Made by a program: the position numbers and the translations under genes. The notes under the pieces were generated by a model that worked only from the letters and a program-made list of their open reading frames with translations, made no database searches and was not told the origin of the DNA. From positions 4,000,001-4,064,000 of the forward strand of contig OZ242318.1 in NCBI GenBank assembly GCA_965208105.1: a stretch of 64,000 nucleotides of DNA, in the 5' to 3' direction. The stretch is from Candidatus Latescibacterota bacterium. GTDB lineage: Bacteria > Latescibacterota > UBA2968 > UBA8231. Shown here piece by piece: positions 52,463-64,000 of this stretch. The first letter of the stretch is position 1; each line of letters opens with the position of its first letter.

Positions 52463-52474
52463 AGGAGATTGGAG

Positions 52475-53872
52475 ATGGGAAGAACCCTATTGCAGAAGGT
52501 CTGGGAGGCGCATACCGTGCGCCAGTTGCCCTCGGGGCAGACCCAGTTGTTCGTCGGCCTCCATCTGGTTCACGAGGTGACCAGTCCCCAGGCCTTTGAA
52601 ATGCTGCGGGATCGCGGCCTCACCGTGCGCTTTCCCGAGCGGACCTTCGCTACGGTGGATCACATCGTGCCCACAGACCTTACCCGCCGGCCATTTGACG
52701 ACGACCTGGCCGAGGAGATGATGGACGCGATAGAGAAAAACGCGGCCGAGTTCGAGGTCCCGCTCTTCAACGTCGGAGACCAGCGTCAGGGGGTGGTTCA
52801 CGTTATCGGTCCGGAGCTGGGACTGACACAGCCGGGGATGACCATTGCCTGCGGCGACAGCCACACTTCGACGCACGGAGCCTTCGGCGCGGTTGCATTC
52901 GGGATCGGCACCAGCCAGGTCCGCGACGTGCTCGCCACCCAGTGTCTGGCCATGGATCCCCTCAAGGTGCGGCGGATCGAGATCGGCGGCAACTTGAGCG
53001 CGGGGGTCTACGCCAAGGACGTCATCCTGCACATTATCGGGCGCCTGGGGGTGAAGGGGGGCGTGGGCTACGGCTACGAGTACGGCGGCCGGGTCATCGA
53101 GGCCCTGACCATGGAGGAGCGGATGACCGTGTGCAACATGTCCATCGAGGGCGGTGCCCGGGTCGGCTACGTGAATCCGGACCGGACGACCTTCGAATAC
53201 CTCAGGGGGCGTCCCCACTCGCCGAGGGAGTTCGAGGAGGCGGTAGCCTGGTGGAAAGGCATGGCCTCGGACCTGGACGCCGAGTACGACGACGTGGTGC
53301 GCCTGAAAGGGGAGGACATAGGCCCTACCGTCACCTGGGGGATCACCCCGGGCCAGTCGGTTGGCGTCGACCATGCCCTTCCCTCCCTCTCGGCCTTTAC
53401 CGAAGCCGATCGCTCCGGCGTCGAGGAGGCCCTGTCCTATATGGATTTCGAGCCCGGCCAGAAGATCGCCGGAACCAGGGTGGACGTCGCGTTCATCGGC
53501 TCGTGTACCAACGGCCGGCTCTCCGACCTGCGCGAGGCAGCCAGGGTCGTCCGAGGGCGCAAGGTCGCTCCCTGGGTCAGGGCTCTCGTGGTGCCCGGCT
53601 CACAGCAGGTACGGGCGGCCGCAGAGGCCGAAGGTCTGCACGAGCTCTTCTCGGAGGCGGGGTTCCAGTGGCGGGACGCCGGATGCTCGATGTGCCTGGC
53701 GATGAACCCAGACAAACTGCAGGGCCGCGAGCTCTGCGCCTCGTCGTCCAACCGCAACTTCAAGGGCCGCCAGGGCAGTCCAACCGGCCGCACCCTGCTG
53801 ATGAGTCCGGCGATGGTCGCCGCCGCGGCGGTGACCGGCGAGGTGGCGGACGTGCGCGAGCTGGTGGAGTAG
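52475..53872 (+). CDS. leuC: 3-isopropylmalate dehydratase large subunit
   Basis: [49 protein letters not shown]. Confidence 0.98.
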
Positions 53873-53954: not shown

Positions 53955-54989
53955 ATGCACCACGTCGATGAATTGCCTGCCTTTCCCGAGGGGTGGTATT
54001 TCGTAGCCACCCGGGAGAACATCCTCCGAGAGAAACTGATCGGGAAGAGATGGCTGGGTGAGGAAATCGTCGCCTGGTGCGACGAGGCGGGCCGCGTCTG
54101 CGTGGCGGACGCGGTATGTCCGCACCTGGGCTCCTACCTGGGGCCGGAGGTGGGCGGCCAGGTATGCGAGGGTCGCCTGGTCTGTCCGTTCCACGGGTTC
54201 GAGTTCGATACGACCGGCCAATGCGTCGCGACTCCGAATGCACCGGCGCCCAGAGCCGCTAAACTGAAGGTATACGAGACCAGGGTTATCCTGGGCCTGG
54301 TCTTCGCCTGGTTCGGGAGCGGAGGCCGGCCCCCACATTGGGAGCTTCCAGGCGCCCCGCCCACCGGCGAGGAGTGGGGCGGGATGGGATACCGGACCCT
54401 GCGGTTCCGCGGCCATCCCCAGGAAACAGCAGAGAATTCGGTGGACCTGGGACACCTGCGCTACGTACACGGCTACGACAATGTGAACCCGGTGGGCTCG
54501 GTAACGGTGGAAGGTGCCTACCTGAGGAGTTGCTTCGACTTCAAACGCGTTCGCAGGATCCTGGGTGTAAAGGACCTCGTGTACGAAATTTCGGCCGTGA
54601 CCCACGTCCATGGACTGGGCTACTCTTTCGTCGAAATCCACGAGAAGACCATCGGTATGAATGCCAGGCTGTGGGTGCTTCCCACACCGGTTGACGGCAC
54701 CCTCCTCGACTTTGTCCTGGTAAGCCAGATGCGGGAAATCCCCAGGCCCCGCAGGTTCATCACGGGTCTGGGGTTCGTTCCCGGGAAGCTGCGCCAGAAA
54801 TTGATGAATCACATTATGCTTTCACAGCAAAAGCGGGATGTGCTGCAGGATGTGGTGATCTGGGAACGGAAGCGGTATCGGACTCCCCCCCGGCTGTGTG
54901 CGGCCGACGGCCCCATAGGGAAGTACCGCCGCTATTGCCGGCAGTTCTATTCCGAACGCTCCGAAGACCCGCCGGAGGCAGCCGACTAG
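53955..54989 (+). CDS. Rieske non-heme iron oxygenase, Neverland/DAF-36 (sterol 7-desaturase) or KshA-like
   Basis: FPEGWY, CPHLG...CPFHG Rieske ligands, ENSVDLGHLRYVH Fe motif, QDVVIWERKRY, DGPIGKYRRYCRQFY. Confidence 0.85.
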   Translation: MHHVDELPAFPEGWYFVATRENILREKLIGKRWLGEEIVAWCDEAGRVCVADAVCPHLGSYLGPEVGGQVCEGRLVCPFHGFEFDTTGQCVATPNAPAPRAAKLKVYETRVILGLVFAWFGSGGRPPHWELPGAPPTGEEWGGMGYRTLRFRGHPQETAENSVDLGHLRYVHGYDNVNPVGSVTVEGAYLRSCFDFKRVRRILGVKDLVYEISAVTHVHGLGYSFVEIHEKTIGMNARLWVLPTPVDGTLLDFVLVSQMREIPRPRRFITGLGFVPGKLRQKLMNHIMLSQQKRDVLQDVVIWERKRYRTPPRLCAADGPIGKYRRYCRQFYSERSEDPPEAAD

Positions 54990-55081: not shown

Positions 55082-56125
55082 TCACCCGGCCTGAAGAGGC
55101 TTACGAGCCAGGAAACAGTACAGCGGCGTAAAGATACCCGCCTTGCCACCCGCGATATAAGCCTCCGCGGTCCGGTCCAGGAGTCGGACGACTTCCGCGG
55201 AGCCCTTCGGAAAGAGCCGCAGTACTTCAGCCAGCTTCAATCCTGCGATGACCGCTTTACGGCCCCACGGAAGCCTGTGCAAGGCGTTCCCAACCGTCCC
55301 ATGGCGACTCTCCATGGGTTGATACCAAGGTGTGGAGGGTCCTTCCTGGATGTCCCGGTCCATCCCTTCCATGACTTGGAATCCCGCGGCTTCGAGCGCG
55401 TGATTCACTTCCCCGAAGGTGGCGATTTCCTTCAGCGCAATGCCGTGCATGAGATCCTCCTCGATGGCCCGGTGCCGGTCGTCCTTCGGATCGAACTTGC
55501 CCGTCAGACACATTTCCTGCCCCCAGAACAGGGCACCGGGTTTCAGCACGCGGAATATCTCCTCGAAGGCGCGTTGCTTGTCCGGCGCATGGCACGTTGA
55601 CTCTATGGCATAACCCCCATCGAAAGTGTCGTCCTCGATGGCGCTCATGTCCATGAAGCTGCACCTCTCGAAATCGACCATGTGATCAAGCCCCGCCTCG
55701 GCGTTCAACCTTTTCGCCTCTTCCAACTGGATCTCATTGATGTTGATTCCCACGACCCTGACACCGGCCTCACGGACGACGCGGCGCATGGGGGCTCCGA
55801 CTCCACAACCAACGTCGACCACCGTCATACCCTGTTGCAGCTCCAACTTGGAAATCATCACCCGCTGATGCCGGACCTTGGACTCCTCCAGACTCTCATG
55901 AGGCGTGAGGGGCGCGAAGTGCAGGGACTGGCCCCAGCCCCACACCATGAACTTGCTGCAAAGGTCGTAATAGTCTTTCACTGTTTCCGAGTGATCGTAC
56001 CCGCCCGCGCCACCGGGCTCCAGCGCCGCCCGGTCGAGCCAGCCGTCGAAGTGCTGCACTCGACGTGCAACGCCCGATGCCCGGTACGCATCTCTCAGCT
56101 CTCTCGACAGTTTGCCCAGCCGCAT
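55082..56125 (-). CDS. Sterol C-24 methyltransferase-like (ERG6/SMT) protein
   Basis: YYD..WGWGQSLHFAP (region I), VDVGCGVGAPMR, YAIESTCHAP, RVLKPG, C-terminal GGKAGIFTPLYCFLARKP (Sterol_MT_C-like). Confidence 0.88.
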   Translation of the reverse strand: MRLGKLSRELRDAYRASGVARRVQHFDGWLDRAALEPGGAGGYDHSETVKDYYDLCSKFMVWGWGQSLHFAPLTPHESLEESKVRHQRVMISKLELQQGMTVVDVGCGVGAPMRRVVREAGVRVVGININEIQLEEAKRLNAEAGLDHMVDFERCSFMDMSAIEDDTFDGGYAIESTCHAPDKQRAFEEIFRVLKPGALFWGQEMCLTGKFDPKDDRHRAIEEDLMHGIALKEIATFGEVNHALEAAGFQVMEGMDRDIQEGPSTPWYQPMESRHGTVGNALHRLPWGRKAVIAGLKLAEVLRLFPKGSAEVVRLLDRTAEAYIAGGKAGIFTPLYCFLARKPLQAG

Positions 56126-58230: not shown

Positions 58231-61200
58231 TTACGCGGTACCGGCGCCGGAACGGCGCCGCGAAGCAATCAGACGCAGATGGATGGTGTAAAGCGCGGGA
58301 ACGACCATCATAAGTATAGCCGTGGTAATGAGAATGCCGCAACCGAGCGAGGCGGCGAAGGGGATCAGGAACTGGGCCTGGATGGCGCGTTCCAGAATAA
58401 GGGGCGTGAAGCCGAGGAACGTGGTCAGGGAAGTGAGCATGATCGGACGAAAGCGCCCCTTGGCGCCCTCCACGATCGCCTTCCTTGCCGAGGCGCCTTC
58501 CCCGATTTTCTGATCGATGAAATCGATCATGACCAGGGAATCGTTCACGACCACCCCACTCAGGCCGAAGATACCCATGAAGGATACGGCACTCAGGGCT
58601 ACTCCCAGGACCCAGTGACCCAGGATCACTCCGATGAACCCGAAGGGGATGACGGCCATGATGATGAACGGCTTGGTATAGGATCGGAGGGGGATGGCCA
58701 GAAGGGCAAAGATCATGATCAGGGCAATCGCGAACCCGCGGTACAGCGCATCCAGGGATTCGAGCTGCTGCTGTTGTTCCCCTCCGAAGCTGTATGTCAG
58801 GTCCGGGTGCAGGGCGGTCAGATCCGCGAGGATCGAATTGGCCAGGATGTCGTTGGCTGCGTCGCCTGAAATCACCGAAGCATCCACGTCCGCAGTGACC
58901 GTGACGACGCGCTGGCCGTCCTTGCGTCGAATGGCCGGCGGCGACACTCCCGGGTTCAGGGAGGCCACACTCATGACCGGGACCTCGGCCCCGCCCGGCG
59001 TGCGGACCAGATAGCTTTCGACATCGGTGATCGAATCCCGCTCGTCTTCGGGCAGGCGCACGTAGACCCGGACCTCTTCCCGGCCGCGCTGCACCCGAAC
59101 GGCCTCTGCGCCGAAGAACGCCGCCCGCGCCTGCCCCGCCAGCTCCTCGAGCGTCAGGCCGAGGGTTCGCGCTTCCGGCCGCAGCTCCAGTTGCACCTCC
59201 GGGATGCCCGGGGCGTGGTCCGAACGTATGTCGTAGACGCCTCCCACCCCGCGGAGTCCATCGACCACGGAGTCTGCAATCCGGGCAAGGCGCTCCGGGT
59301 CCGGATGCGACAACACGGCCTCCACCGGGTTGCCCAGGTCGAAGACCTCGCCGCTGAATGTGATGCCGCGTACGTAGGGCAGCACGCCCACTTCCTCCCG
59401 CCATGCCTGCACGACCTCTCCGGTGGAGATTTCTCTCTGTTGGGCGCCCAGAAGTTTGAACTCGATGGTGGCGATGTTGGCTTGCGGATTGAGGGTCGGC
59501 TCCGGATTGAGCCCGCCCTCGAGTCTCGATCCCTGTCCGACGGTCACCGTTACGCCGGTCAGCAGCGGTGGCGCGTCCCCGGGCCGGCCGCGCGAGAGTC
59601 GTTCGATGACCCGGTGGCCTGCGGCCTCCAGTTCCTGCGCCACCTCGTACGTCCTCGGAGCGGTCGCCCCGTCGGGCATCTCCAGGACGACCGTCGCGAT
59701 ATCCCCCTCCACGTCAGCGGCCAGCGTGGTAGGAACGATCCCCGCGGGCAACAGGGAGATGCTCAGCACGAGCATTCCCACGGCCGCCGCCATGGTCACC
59801 CCGGGCTGGTCGGTGGCGAACCGCAGGGCGCGGTCCAGAGGCCCTTGCACGAACCTGTTCAGCAGCGCGTCAACGCGCCCCTGGAGCCGCGCGAAGAACC
59901 GGTCGAAGGCATTGGCCGGCACCCACTCCGGGCCGTGCAGGTGGGAAAGGTGGTTGGGCAGCACCAGCAGCGATTCGACCAGGGAAACCAGCAGCATGGC
60001 GATCATGATGATCGGCAGGGCCCGCCATACGTCACCGACGCCACCCGGGATGAACAGCAACGGGACGAAGGCCACTACCGACGTGAGGACTGCGAACGTC
60101 AACGGCACCTTGATCCGCCGCACGCCGCGGATCGCGGCCGTGACCCCTGGTGTTCCCCGCTTGCGTTCGTATCGAATGTGCTCGGCCACGACGATGGCGT
60201 CGTCGACGACGATCCCTATGGCGAGGACGAAGGAGAACAGGCTGATGGTGTTGATCGCCACGTCGAATGCCATCATGATGGCGAGGGCGCCGATACCCGA
60301 AACGGCGAGGCCCACGGCGACCCAGAGCGCGAGTCTTATTTCAAGGAACAGGCTGAGTGCGATCAGCACCAGCAACAGGCCCAGGATCCCGTTCTTGAGG
60401 AGAAGATCGGCGCGTTCCTCATAGACCTGGGATTCGTCGTTCCACATGGTGACGCCCACGCCGTCCGGCAGGGCCGGGATCACCTCCTCCGCCAGGTGCT
60501 CGCGGACGGTGGTGGCCACGTCCATCACCTGCTCGCCTTCGGCCCGGTAGACCTCGACGAAGACGGCGGGATGGTTCTGATGCCGGACGATCAGGTCGGC
60601 TTCCTGGAAACCGTCGCGGACCTCGGCGATATCTCCAAGGCGCAGGACCGTGCCGTCACGGCCGCTGAGAAGGACGATCTCCTCGAAGTCCTGCTGGTCG
60701 TAGTTCTGGCCGAGGGTGCGGACCCTCACCTGGGATTCCCGGGTATCGATGCTGCCAGCGGACAGTTCCAGGGAACTCCGGCGAATCGTGTGGGCGATGT
60801 CGGTGAGCGTGAGTCCGAGGGCTCTCAGCCGGTGCAGGGGAACCTCGATGGAGATCTCGTATCTCCGGACACCGCTGACCTCGACCTGGGAGACGGAGGG
60901 AAGCGTGGTGAGGTCGTCCTCGATCTGGTAGGCCAGTTCCTTCAGCGCGCGCTCGGAGACGTCGCCGTAAACGATGAGCCGCATCATGCTCTGGCGGTTG
61001 GTCATCTCCCGGAACCGCGGACGTTCGGCGCCGGCCGGGAAGAACTGTATGCGATTGACAGCAGATTCGATATCATCCAGCGCCCGTGCCATGTCCGTAT
61101 CGAAATCCATTTGAACCCGCACGGAGGCCATGCCCGGGGCTGCTACGGACTTGACAGCCTTCACGTCATCCAGCCCGCTGACCTGGTCCTCGATCTTGAC

Positions 61201-61425
61201 GACGATCGACTCCTCGATCTCCTCCGGTGTGGCGCCGGGATAGGCCATCGAGACTTCGATATGGTAGAAAGGGGTGGTGGGCCAGGCTTCCCGCTCGATA
61301 CTGGTCAGCGACACCAGCCCTGCGGCGATGATGGCCCACATCAGCAGATTGGCGGCTACGCCATTCCCTGCCATGTAGGCGATGGGGCCGGCTGGTTCGC
61401 TGTGATTGCCGTTGTCTGTACTCAT
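58231..61425 (-). CDS. RND-family efflux permease (AcrB/AcrD/AcrF-like)
   Basis: YPGATPEEIEESIV, GIVVDDAIVVAE, GVVVNDSLV, RFRPIMLTSLTT. Confidence 0.95.
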   Translation of the reverse strand: MSTDNGNHSEPAGPIAYMAGNGVAANLLMWAIIAAGLVSLTSIEREAWPTTPFYHIEVSMAYPGATPEEIEESIVVKIEDQVSGLDDVKAVKSVAAPGMASVRVQMDFDTDMARALDDIESAVNRIQFFPAGAERPRFREMTNRQSMMRLIVYGDVSERALKELAYQIEDDLTTLPSVSQVEVSGVRRYEISIEVPLHRLRALGLTLTDIAHTIRRSSLELSAGSIDTRESQVRVRTLGQNYDQQDFEEIVLLSGRDGTVLRLGDIAEVRDGFQEADLIVRHQNHPAVFVEVYRAEGEQVMDVATTVREHLAEEVIPALPDGVGVTMWNDESQVYEERADLLLKNGILGLLLVLIALSLFLEIRLALWVAVGLAVSGIGALAIMMAFDVAINTISLFSFVLAIGIVVDDAIVVAEHIRYERKRGTPGVTAAIRGVRRIKVPLTFAVLTSVVAFVPLLFIPGGVGDVWRALPIIMIAMLLVSLVESLLVLPNHLSHLHGPEWVPANAFDRFFARLQGRVDALLNRFVQGPLDRALRFATDQPGVTMAAAVGMLVLSISLLPAGIVPTTLAADVEGDIATVVLEMPDGATAPRTYEVAQELEAAGHRVIERLSRGRPGDAPPLLTGVTVTVGQGSRLEGGLNPEPTLNPQANIATIEFKLLGAQQREISTGEVVQAWREEVGVLPYVRGITFSGEVFDLGNPVEAVLSHPDPERLARIADSVVDGLRGVGGVYDIRSDHAPGIPEVQLELRPEARTLGLTLEELAGQARAAFFGAEAVRVQRGREEVRVYVRLPEDERDSITDVESYLVRTPGGAEVPVMSVASLNPGVSPPAIRRKDGQRVVTVTADVDASVISGDAANDILANSILADLTALHPDLTYSFGGEQQQQLESLDALYRGFAIALIMIFALLAIPLRSYTKPFIIMAVIPFGFIGVILGHWVLGVALSAVSFMGIFGLSGVVVNDSLVMIDFIDQKIGEGASARKAIVEGAKGRFRPIMLTSLTTFLGFTPLILERAIQAQFLIPFAASLGCGILITTAILMMVVPALYTIHLRLIASRRRSGAGTA

Positions 61426-62636
61426 GGTGTGGAGTCGATTTCTGTCTGGACCCGCATGCCTTCGGTGGCAAACAGGATCCCACCGGTGATCACCGCCCCG
61501 CCGCTTTCGAGATTACCGGTCACGATTACCCGATCGTCGGCGCGCTGCAGCACCCGTACCGGAACGATACTCACCGCCCCGGCTTCATCCACCAGCCATA
61601 CCACGTTCCCCGGGCGCAATGCTGCTCGAGGCACCTTGAAGTAGCTGTCCAGTGCAACGCCTTCGATCTCCACCTCCACGAAGGCGCCCACCAGCAACGG
61701 CGGGATGCCGCCGGAGCCACCGGAACGGGCCGCCGGGCCGCTAGCGGAAAACGGGTTCGGAACGCGCACGATCACGTCGATGGTGCGGGTTTGCTGGTCG
61801 AGGGATGCCTCGGCCCGGTCGACGTAGCCATCCCGGGCATGACTCCCGCCGCCGTATCGGGTGACCACCCGGGCTGCCACGCGCCGGTCCCCATCGCCGG
61901 GCTTGAGTTCCCAAAGCCCCGGGATCAGGTCGGCGTCGGCATCGGACAAGGGCACGACCACTTCGACGGCATCCGCGGCGAAAAGTTTCCCGACCGGCTG
62001 GCCGGAGGTGACGATTCGTCCCACTTCGGCGGATTCTTCGCGCACGAAGCCGGCGAAGGGGACGGTTACCCTGGTTCTGTGAAGGGCGAGATTGGCCTCG
62101 GCGAGGCGGGCTTCTTCGCGCTTCAGCGCGGCACGGGCGGCCTTTAACTGGGGCTCCCTCAGCGTGAGGGGACTGGCTGGTGGCGGAGAATCCCCACCCT
62201 CATGCCGCTGGGAGTAGAGCTCGTACTGATCGCGGGCGATGGCCGCTCGTTCCTCCTCTTCGAGCAGGGCCACACGTCGTGCGGCGAGATTGGCCTCGGC
62301 CTCCATCACCCGGTAGCGATAGTCCGCCTCTTCGATGCGAAAAACCGCCTGGCCCGCCTCCACCCGGCCGCCGCTCTGGAATCCCGGATCCACCCAGACG
62401 ATTTTGCCGCCCACTTGCGGTGCGACATCGATCTCGGCGCCTGGCCTTACGGTTCCGGCCCCGGATACGGGTATGGGGCCGGAACCGGCGCTGACCAGAC
62501 CGGTCTGCGCGAACGGCGTTTGGGGCGGCGGATCGGTGCGGGCCGGCTCGGGGGCCAGCGAGACCAGAAAAGCCGCCAGGGCCGCGGAGACCACGATAAT
62601 GGCGCCGGCTAAAATAAAGCTGAGAATGCGGGACAT
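61422..62636 (-). CDS. RND periplasmic adaptor (MFP) subunit
   Basis: N-terminal TM, VAPQVGGKIV, VPFAGFV lipoyl motifs, LDQQTRT, VPRAAL. Stop overlaps the permease start. Confidence 0.93.
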   Translation of the reverse strand: MSRILSFILAGAIIVVSAALAAFLVSLAPEPARTDPPPQTPFAQTGLVSAGSGPIPVSGAGTVRPGAEIDVAPQVGGKIVWVDPGFQSGGRVEAGQAVFRIEEADYRYRVMEAEANLAARRVALLEEEERAAIARDQYELYSQRHEGGDSPPPASPLTLREPQLKAARAALKREEARLAEANLALHRTRVTVPFAGFVREESAEVGRIVTSGQPVGKLFAADAVEVVVPLSDADADLIPGLWELKPGDGDRRVAARVVTRYGGGSHARDGYVDRAEASLDQQTRTIDVIVRVPNPFSASGPAARSGGSGGIPPLLVGAFVEVEIEGVALDSYFKVPRAALRPGNVVWLVDEAGAVSIVPVRVLQRADDRVIVTGNLESGGAVITGGILFATEGMRVQTEIDSTP

Positions 62637-62642
62637 GGCGAT

Positions 62643-64000
62643 TTACTCCGTGGAGGTCGGAAGAAACTGGGTGGGGGCGGCGTTGTCCTGCCGGACGGAC
62701 CTTCTGTCGTGGGCCGTCCACGAGCCTCCCAGGGCCCGGTGCAGTGCAAGGCGGGCGAAACCCAGGTCGCGGTTTGCCGCCGCCTGCACCGATTGCGCGA
62801 TCAGGAAGGATTGCGAGGCTTCGAGGAAAGCCTCGTAATCCCCCACTCCCGCAGCATAGCGAAGCTCCTGAAGGTCGGATTCAGCTTTGGCTTCCCGCGC
62901 GATTGAAGCCAGCAGGGAATGACGGCGCCGGCTGGCCTCCAGTCCTGTGAGAGCGGTCTCAACCTCGTTGACCGCGGTCACCACCGAACGTCCGAAGGCC
63001 GCCGCCGTTTCGTTCAGCCTGGCTTCTGCGAGTGCCACGTTGCCGCGCAGCCGCCCACCCTGGAATACCGGCCCGAGCAGGTTCATGCTGAGGTTTCGGA
63101 ACCACTGATCCGGGTCGAACCACTCGCCCGAGTCGGTGCTCTGGAGGCCAATGGAACCTTGCAGGGACAATCTTGGGAGCAGATCCGCGCGGCGGGCGCC
63201 AACGGTGAATCTGGCAGCTGTCACCCGCTGCCATGCCGCGCCGACGTCGGGCCGCTGCACCAGGAGATCGGCCGGGATACCAGTGGGGACAGGCTGGAGA
63301 ACGGAAGATGCAGCCAGGGAACTGGGAAGCGAATCTGCGATGTGTTGGCGGTGACCTCCCATAAGCACCCAGAGCCGCCCTTCGGCATCCGCCCGCAGAG
63401 ATTCGACCTGCGGCAGCCTGGCCTGGGCGTCGCGCAGGCCCCGGCGCGCCAGACGCAGACCGCGCGCATCGATGAGCCCGCGATCGTAGCGAGATTCGGC
63501 CAGCGACTCCAGCTGTTGAAAGATCTCCACGATTTTCTCTGCGAGTCTCTGTTGATGGCGCAGGCTTACGATCTCCAGGTAAGTCCGCACGGTTTCGGCC
63601 ATCACCCCCATTCGGGCATTCAGGTAGTCCCACTCCGAGGCCAGCCGTGCCGCTCCAGCCGCGGCGGCGTCGTTGCGATTGCGGCCCCAGAAGTCGAGTT
63701 CGTAGGCGAATTCCACGTCGGCGTTGTAGGCAGTCAGGCCGAGCCGGTCGGGAAGAACGATGCCGGATGCGCTTTCGGAGTCCGAACCCAACCCCAATTC
63801 GTCCAGTTGCGCTCCGATTCCTGCATTCGTTGGCGCATTGAAGTCGTTGACGCCGACAGTCGACTGAATCGACGGAAACGCCGGAGCTTTGGCGATGCGT
63901 TCCCTCGCCCTGGCCTGATTGACCCGGGCGACCGCCTCGTCCAGGTCGAAGTTCGAAAATATCACCTCCTCGATTACCTGGTCGAGGACTGGGTCGGCGA
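62643..64000 (-). CDS. TolC/NodT-family outer membrane efflux factor (5' end beyond the window)
   Basis: NFDL..AVARV, YELDFWGR, PADLLVQRPDV, LHRALGGSW. Confidence 0.93.
   Translation of the reverse strand, partial: ADPVLDQVIEEVIFSNFDLDEAVARVNQARARERIAKAPAFPSIQSTVGVNDFNAPTNAGIGAQLDELGLGSDSESASGIVLPDRLGLTAYNADVEFAYELDFWGRNRNDAAAAGAARLASEWDYLNARMGVMAETVRTYLEIVSLRHQQRLAEKIVEIFQQLESLAESRYDRGLIDARGLRLARRGLRDAQARLPQVESLRADAEGRLWVLMGGHRQHIADSLPSSLAASSVLQPVPTGIPADLLVQRPDVGAAWQRVTAARFTVGARRADLLPRLSLQGSIGLQSTDSGEWFDPDQWFRNLSMNLLGPVFQGGRLRGNVALAEARLNETAAAFGRSVVTAVNEVETALTGLEASRRRHSLLASIAREAKAESDLQELRYAAGVGDYEAFLEASQSFLIAQSVQAAANRDLGFARLALHRALGGSWTAHDRRSVRQDNAAPTQFLPTSTE

Follow-up and report, generated by a model that had tools for sequence, protein, structure and literature searches.

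Sterol methyltransferases (SMTs) are known from fungi (Erg6) and plants (SMT1 and SMT2), and bacterial SMTs have been published as well (PMC10070321), as the first-pass annotation of the locus described here had stated. The canonical C-24 enzymes of sponge symbionts, among them the propylating Ap_sym_SMT and Chl_SMT (PMC10070321; bioRxiv 10.64898/2025.12.19.695621), share with our protein of interest, P0001, the two domains, the SAM motif and the essential residues, and fungal and plant SMTs share with it the family and its fold-defining motifs. Two further described systems resemble parts of this locus. GPP34_L, a fusion of a GPP34 domain and a cytochrome P450, is described as restricted to sponge symbionts, with a proposed role in the modulation of phagocytosis (PMC11706023); it has the same architecture as P0339, the neighbour of our gene, and the main text of that paper gives no match for "sterol" or "methyltransferase". 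The nematode C4-methyltransferase STRM-1 (PMC6997595) offers a precedent for a remodelled region I, a new regiochemistry and a pathway with a Rieske desaturase; it is far more diverged than P0001 (21% identity to Erg6) and needs 3-oxo substrates.

The window, that is, the whole stretch of 64,000 nucleotides analysed from Candidatus Latescibacterota bacterium (GCA_965208105.1, contig OZ242318.1, positions 4,000,001 to 4,064,000), carries on its minus strand, at 55082-56125, the gene of P0001, a divergent SMT-family methyltransferase according to its motifs, Pfam domains, tree position and residue alignment. Translation of this frame gives 347 aa with no internal stops; the ATG at 56125 lines up with the starts of homologs, and an alternative TTG further upstream would give 359 aa. 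In comparison with orthologs, dN/dS was 0.13-0.32 in 15 of 15 cases, so P0001 is under purifying selection. The gene is real and intact, the open frame and these ratios ruling out a pseudogene or decay. Eukaryotic contamination was likewise ruled out by overlaps within the operon, bacterial flanks, bacterial orthologs at 93% and GC content, which is 0.61 in the SMT gene and 0.60-0.66 in the leu and TPR genes. Scans for promoters and terminators at the locus performed no better than chance.

The SMT signature regions and C-terminal tail that had been noticed from the sequence were indeed found in the 347-aa frame, as MVWGWGQSLHF, DVGCGVGAPMR, IESTCHAP and GGKAGIFTPLYCFLARKP. In Pfam the frame matched Methyltransf_11 at E 4e-18 and Sterol_MT_C at E 6e-16 (58.7 bits, where the cut-off is 21.7), the latter being the sole match to this profile in the whole genome. 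Identity is 34% to a fungal Erg6 (Cladosporium; 336 aa), 42% to one canonical bacterial SMT (299 aa) and about 36-44% to the canonical copies in the loci that we fetched. A sequence search of the PDB returned no solved SMT structure; the best matches were methyltransferases at E 1e-22 only, covering the core domain.

We placed P0001 in a quick PMSF tree of 74 chosen rows with fungal, plant and bacterial SMTs, rooted on three plasmid methyltransferases, one of which has a very long branch. P0001 and its relatives sit inside the SMTs (SH-aLRT 97 against the three bacterial outgroups; the tree holds no tocopherol methyltransferase), separate from the canonical bacterial, fungal and plant rows. 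Family membership was thus borne out, and the Sterol_MT_C domain together with this placement argues against a methyltransferase of the tocopherol or RebM type. In this tree the clade forms one group (SH-aLRT 99, or 100 when three deeper relatives, P0122, P0124 and P0126, at 41-55% identity are included, on a stem of 0.89 changes per site). Its nearest relatives are bacterial, the closest orthologs being Latescibacterota MAGs, and the label "eukaryote-type" given to the gene in the first-pass annotation was therefore overstated. Judged from its sequence, P0001 is an intact SMT-family enzyme on a separate branch and not a canonical C-24 SMT.

A protein search gave 1,911 matches, the best 120 of which were 78-95% identical to P0001. 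Scanning genomes yielded at least 551 confirmed stretches, of which the best 80, at 72-93% identity, were analysed; they come from Latescibacterota, Gemmatimonadota, Chloroflexota, Nitrospirota, Nitrospinota, Acidobacteriota, Rhodothermota, Binatota, Actinomycetota and Pseudomonadota. Within Latescibacterota, 25 of 168 genomes have a clade copy. Inside the clade, rows from Rhodothermales and Acidobacteriota are nested among Longimicrobiales, Latescibacterota appear in two places and monophyly of Chloroflexota is marginally rejected (p-AU 0.035), a topology that fits transfer of the gene across phyla. A metagenome scan, not exhaustive because it was queried with the motifs of a 49% relative, gave 63 matches under 10 accession prefixes; 25 of them carry prefixes of A. 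aerophoba, P. ficiformis or S. foetidus, listed as sponge metagenomes by Brown et al. (PMC10070321). The clade appears to spread horizontally among sponge-symbiont bacteria. Viral contigs held no clade relative and plasmids only distant methyltransferases (at most 34% identity among the best 25 of 60 matches), and a phage or plasmid vector was set aside on these results. A 477-aa clade SMT, P0063, has an additional KshA_C match and may be an SMT-Rieske fusion or a read-through; it stands for nine member sequences.

For the residue comparison, the yeast numbering of the clade was fixed by motif anchors and the spacing given in bioRxiv 10.64898/2025.12.19.695621. The residues essential in the yeast SMT, H90, D125, G129, P133 and E195, are each present in 201 of 201 clade sequences, including P0001, which matches 22 of the 25 residues that the same preprint finds common to all active SMTs and departs at T78S, F89L and G132A. 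The SAM motif, W85, H90 and F91 are conserved in P0001, and the region I signature Y81-E-Y-G-W-G86 is replaced by MVWGWG. Compared with fungal and plant SMTs, Y81-E82-Y83 of region I has thus become M-V-W and the Y/W pair of region IV has become Q/M, in a gene that is bacterial and mobile; compared with canonical bacterial SMTs, P0001 lacks T78, F89, G132, F81/F83 and G249, lies on a long separate branch and has different gene partners. Its signature (S78/M81/V82/W83/L89, Q223/M225, I249) is largely that of the whole clade: M81, L89, Q223 and M225 are invariant (201/201 each), position 249 is I in 199 sequences and V in two, V82 occurs in 193 of 201 and S or N at position 78 in 187 of 201. These fixed changes (M81, L89, Q223, M225, I249) were mostly missing from the variants originally listed for this gene. 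Among those that were listed, GAPM reflects a minority state (A132 in 34 of 201 sequences, G in 166), and IESTCHAP does not distinguish the protein, since IES-T/M in region III is found in canonical bacterial SMTs too.

Positions 81 and 249 adjoin the sterol side chain in models of other SMTs (bioRxiv 10.64898/2025.12.19.695621), and the clade-wide Y81M, E82V, F89L, Y223Q, W225M and I249 together predict a rebuilt substrate pocket. The first-pass annotation had supposed that the changes in region I might alter the substrate or the number of methylation rounds. A shift of substrate is probable. Gly249 is needed for propylation, which further calls for Phe81 and/or Phe83, and a G249I mutant of a propylating SMT made only C28 sterols, no C29 or C30; with I249, M81 and W83, extra rounds are unlikely for P0001, and propylation was set aside on the same residues.

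A tested relative bears directly on the proposed C-24 activity. The SMT of a 70,077-bp Nitrospira locus, L029, belongs to the same clade and is 81% identical to P0001. The locus reads CYP51, ERG24, SdmA, SdmB, SMT, FAD oxidoreductase, outer-membrane protein, Rieske, SMT, an order that matches ids 278 to 270, so its clade copy corresponds to "Nitrospira sp., coral reef 2 of 2" (IMG gene 2682229270) of Brown et al. 2023 (PMC10070321). In that study, 12 of 14 environmental SMTs were active and the legend of Fig. 3 mentions that some clustered SMTs were inactive (PMC10070321); supplements 1, 2 and 4 of PMC10070321 and bioRxiv 10.1101/2022.05.16.491679 gave no direct statement of which SMTs were inactive. 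The L029 protein departs at four of the 25 active-SMT positions (T78S, F89L, D189N and L341M) and for this reason cannot belong to the active set, provided that the authors' alignment included it. From the text of the paper and these residues we deduce that it is very likely inactive on both desmosterol and 24-methylenecholesterol, which speaks against naming P0001 a C-24 methyltransferase, as had been done. This negative result is weaker than it appears. N189 occurs in two and M341 in 18 of 201 clade sequences, so the inactivity may be private to this copy, and four other SMTs that have every conserved residue showed no activity in the tests either (bioRxiv 10.64898/2025.12.19.695621), so the assay may miss active enzymes. 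The Nitrospira copy resembles P0001 in its clade and in its Rieske and GPP34-P450 neighbours. It differs in that it adjoins a complete gene cluster for de novo sterol synthesis, canonical SMT included, where the cassette of P0001 uses an AcrB-type pump and lies in a genome in which neither an OSC nor a canonical SMT was found, and in bearing D189N and L341M, where P0001 has G132A instead. The numbering of an A. aerophoba "2 of 2" enzyme (9 SMT, 11 SMT, 12 SMO-OSC) fits the layout of another locus, L026, which is suggestive only.

In the window, P0001 lies downstream of four genes on the same strand, in the order outer-membrane factor, adaptor, RND permease and GPP34-P450. They encode an outer-membrane efflux factor of the NodT/TolC type (62643-64000, minus strand, its start just past the window edge), an RND periplasmic adaptor of the MFP type (61422-62636, minus; 404 aa, its stop overlapping the RND start), an AcrB/RND permease (58231-61425, minus; 1064 aa) and the GPP34-P450 fusion P0339 (56166-58199, minus; 677 aa, heme Cys motif intact). 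A Rieske [2Fe-2S] and KshA_C oxygenase (53955-54989, plus; 344 aa) faces the SMT gene convergently; it has its Rieske and mononuclear-iron motifs, is the genome's only KshA_C match and finds its best PDB matches in KshA structures (E 2e-22). The best PDB matches of P0339 are CYP51 and CYP120, at E 1e-17 only. The I-helix of P450s normally bears an acid-alcohol pair; in P0339 it reads ASVYLGD, in which the pair is absent, as it is in the five commonest I-helix variants (49 of 65 close homologs), and a conserved Tyr stands at its position. This Tyr, and the lack of any recognisable ferredoxin or reductase among the recurrent cassette neighbours, suggest that the chemistry of the fusion may be unusual.

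The cassette, some small genes and a PKS locus form an island of about 31 kb between leuC (window 52469-53872) and leuD (G000:C1:4085307-4085906; L167:14307-14906). In the one congener examined (G107) the same island has decayed: a Rieske remnant and the outer-membrane factor are kept, RND, P450 and SMT are gone and the PKS is shortened to 463 aa. The island PKS has 3,420 aa arranged as KS-AT-DH-MT-ER-KR-ACP-KS-AT (L167:573-10832, minus; L155:7494-9115, minus), with a phosphopantetheinyl transferase and an alpha/beta hydrolase as neighbours, and we take it to be similar to the Sup PKS ubiquitous in sponges.

The same partners recur across phyla, in shuffled gene order. Within 10 kb of the clade gene in the best 80 of at least 551 loci, GPP34 was found in 76, P450 in 75 (the fusion being taken as present in 76) and Rieske in 69; a transporter was found in 68, of AcrB type in 49 and MMPL type in 19, never together, and one MMPL protein matches the Pfam Sterol-sensing profile (E 5e-14). 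In 11 of the 80 loci the same 10-kb range includes a further gene of the sterol pathway, namely a canonical SMT, CYP51, ERG4/24 or SdmAB. In Latescibacterota, 24 of the 25 genomes carrying the clade SMT have a P450 match of at least 77%. Linkage was looser in the 63 more diverse metagenome loci (GPP34 in 33, Rieske in 19; GPP34 in 28 of the 43 loci of at least 9 kb), where some clade copies stand alone. Contigs from four of four metatranscriptome runs covered parts of the cassette; such contigs cannot show transcription and, being mostly below 95% identity, come from relatives. All seven loci fetched for one P450 subtype proved to be RND-P450-Rieske cassettes without the SMT, their SMT slot being empty or filled by an FAD enzyme or an SDR, and we therefore regard the SMT as an optional tailoring step on an oxidation-and-export core.

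In the source genome (93.9% complete, one contig) we found no triterpene cyclase or OSC, squalene epoxidase, CYP51, SdmAB or canonical SMT, that is, no gene cluster for de novo sterol synthesis; with OSC and canonical SMT missing, the cell probably imports any sterol on which the enzyme acts. Elsewhere the genome does encode a squalene/phytoene synthase and an ERG4/24-family protein. Among the 80 clade genomes, a canonical SMT was detected in 23, any cyclase in 24 and an OSC-type cyclase in 10, the clade gene lying within about 13 kb of the latter in four of those 10; put the other way, 57 of these genomes, MAGs that can be incomplete, showed no canonical SMT and 70 no OSC-type cyclase. The substrate would usually have to come from outside the cell. 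Scattered over the source genome are a lone ERG4/ERG24-family reductase (L151:5277-6413), a short stand-alone GPP34 gene (L153:5812-6465) and a second lipid locus (L171:5399-14029; G000:C1 about 4568400-4577000) with an MpaB/Lcp-type oxygenase, an MMPL transporter, a LolA-like protein, IspH and a squalene/phytoene synthase, in a genome with no detected cyclase. An unlinked FAD oxidoreductase (G000:C1:1997984-1999369; L152:4985-6370), near an IS110 transposase, is 77-86% identical to a gene of 37 of the 80 cassettes and has LkcE and 2b9w as PDB relatives. We take 2b9w to be the structure of a fatty-acid double-bond isomerase.

Our preferred reading, to which we give a little less than an even chance, is that P0001 methylates a sterol side-chain olefin other than the C-24 ones used by ERG6, SMT1 and SMT2. 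In its favour, the catalytic residues are kept, the side-chain pocket is changed and canonical paralogs are retained alongside. In such a pathway, sterols of the host or the community would enter the cell and be oxidised, desaturated or isomerised by the Rieske, P450 and FAD enzymes, the SMT-like enzyme would add a methyl group via the usual SAM/carbocation route and the pump would export the methylated product. The aromatics lost in the clade may point away from carbocation chemistry.

The leading case within this reading, circumstantial and by itself less likely than not, is that the clade is the missing C-26 SMT and converts a terminal C-25(26) olefin to 26-methyl sterols. The neighbouring Nitrospira enzyme, "coral reef 1 of 2", made (epi)codisterol, which its authors name as a substrate for still-unknown 26-SMTs (Brown et al., PMC10070321), and in Nitrospira-type genomes the adjoining canonical SMT could provide it directly. 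Elsewhere the C-25 olefin would need another source, given the 57 and 70 of 80 genomes without canonical SMT and OSC-type cyclase. Aplysterol, a 26-methyl sterol, and a 24,26-dimethyl sterol are reported from A. aerophoba and P. ficiformis. Nine of the 63 metagenome matches come from Sarcotragus, and the clade is also common in symbionts named for Ircinia and Rhopaloeides; we know of no major 26-methyl sterols in any of these three sponges. For one Sarcotragus species, the table of Brown et al. lists only C28 and C29 sterols and names no major sterol (PMC10070321). A literature search, with subscription journals outside its scope, found no paper describing a 26-SMT or the SMT-GPP34-P450-Rieske cassette.

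The clade nevertheless offers a concrete candidate for a C-26-methylating enzyme, a named target in the debate on sponge biomarkers. If the C-26 version were true, symbionts rather than the sponge would extend side chains into precursors of aplysterol-type sterols and 26-methylstigmastane, a mobile cassette shared across phyla and made up of the Rieske oxygenase, the atypical GPP34-P450, the FAD isomerase-like enzyme and the exporter would remodel host sterols, a bacterial enzyme would stand behind a key Neoproterozoic animal biomarker, and the GPP34-P450 "symbiosis factor" would act in steroid tailoring. The clade genes, ERG6/SMT homologs by similarity, should not count as evidence of bacterial C-24 alkylation, and the enrichment of SMT1/ERG6 reported for sponge microbiomes (PMC9531527) may in part reflect them. 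The cassette links the sponge-symbiont-only GPP34-P450 fusion, one subtype of which travels here with an SMT-like gene, to steroid chemistry and export, unlike the phagocytosis reading of PMC11706023, and suggests that symbionts without sterol synthesis may still edit host sterols.

The strongest alternative keeps C-24 as the site: P0001 would methylate C-24 only of a sterol whose nucleus the cassette has already modified, for example into a 5,7-diene or by hydroxylation; equally, the tested ortholog may have failed for technical or private reasons. We consider this improbable, yet a serious contender. In its favour are the retention of 22 of 25 conserved residues and of all five yeast-essential ones, the rare D189N and L341M of the tested ortholog, and the authors' own remark that SMTs found inactive might act on different substrates; in a sequence atlas, the Rieske protein has among its neighbours clusters auto-named "cholesterol 7-desaturase", a lead only. 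It sits poorly with the clustering of changes at 81 and 249, beside the side chain in the preprint models, and with the canonical SMT kept by 23 of 80 genomes, which suggests different jobs for the two enzymes.

Methylation away from the side chain, either at C-4 of 3-oxo sterols, as by STRM-1, or on the oxygen of a hydroxyl that the P450 or the Rieske enzyme has introduced and that would thus be capped ahead of export, seems to us decidedly unlikely. STRM-1 is indeed an SMT relative that has lost the region I aromatics and shares a pathway with DAF-36, a Rieske enzyme (PMC6997595), and some cassettes without the SMT hold a 3beta-HSD-like SDR in its slot. However, P0001 retains W85, H90 and F91, and its identity to a fungal Erg6 is 34%, against 21% between STRM-1 and yeast Erg6, and an SDR occurs in only one of the 80 clade loci, as the SdmB of a sterol cluster; the 74-row tree contained no 4-SMT sequence. 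Least probable, and in our view very doubtful, is a non-steroid lipid substrate, for instance an ether lipid or branched fatty acid from the Sup-like PKS, for an enzyme recruited from the sterol family: most clade genomes lack an OSC, leuC and leuD enclose the 3,420-aa PKS as well as the cassette and the FAD partner resembles LkcE and 2b9w, but the PKS is not among the recognisable recurrent neighbours, several phyla repeatedly have sterol genes beside the clade gene, and the Sterol_MT_C domain and the KshA-type partner are kept.

Several loci show variants of these arrangements. Two sister cassettes (L163:10380-11405 and L164:10578-11684) combine a more distant GPP34-P450 (54-60%) with a 3beta-HSD-like SDR in the SMT slot, and two cassettes without the SMT (L161:2566-6731 and L162:11758-16369) have an AMP-binding enzyme, a flavin halogenase of the CmlS type and an SDR on their flanks. 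In L022, L046, L037 and L058, a second, canonical-like SMT paralog group adjoins the clade gene, with at most two copies per locus, some with Gly249; its hosts are Nitrospinota-like and Thermodesulfobacteriota MAGs, in which the OSC is sometimes far away or absent.
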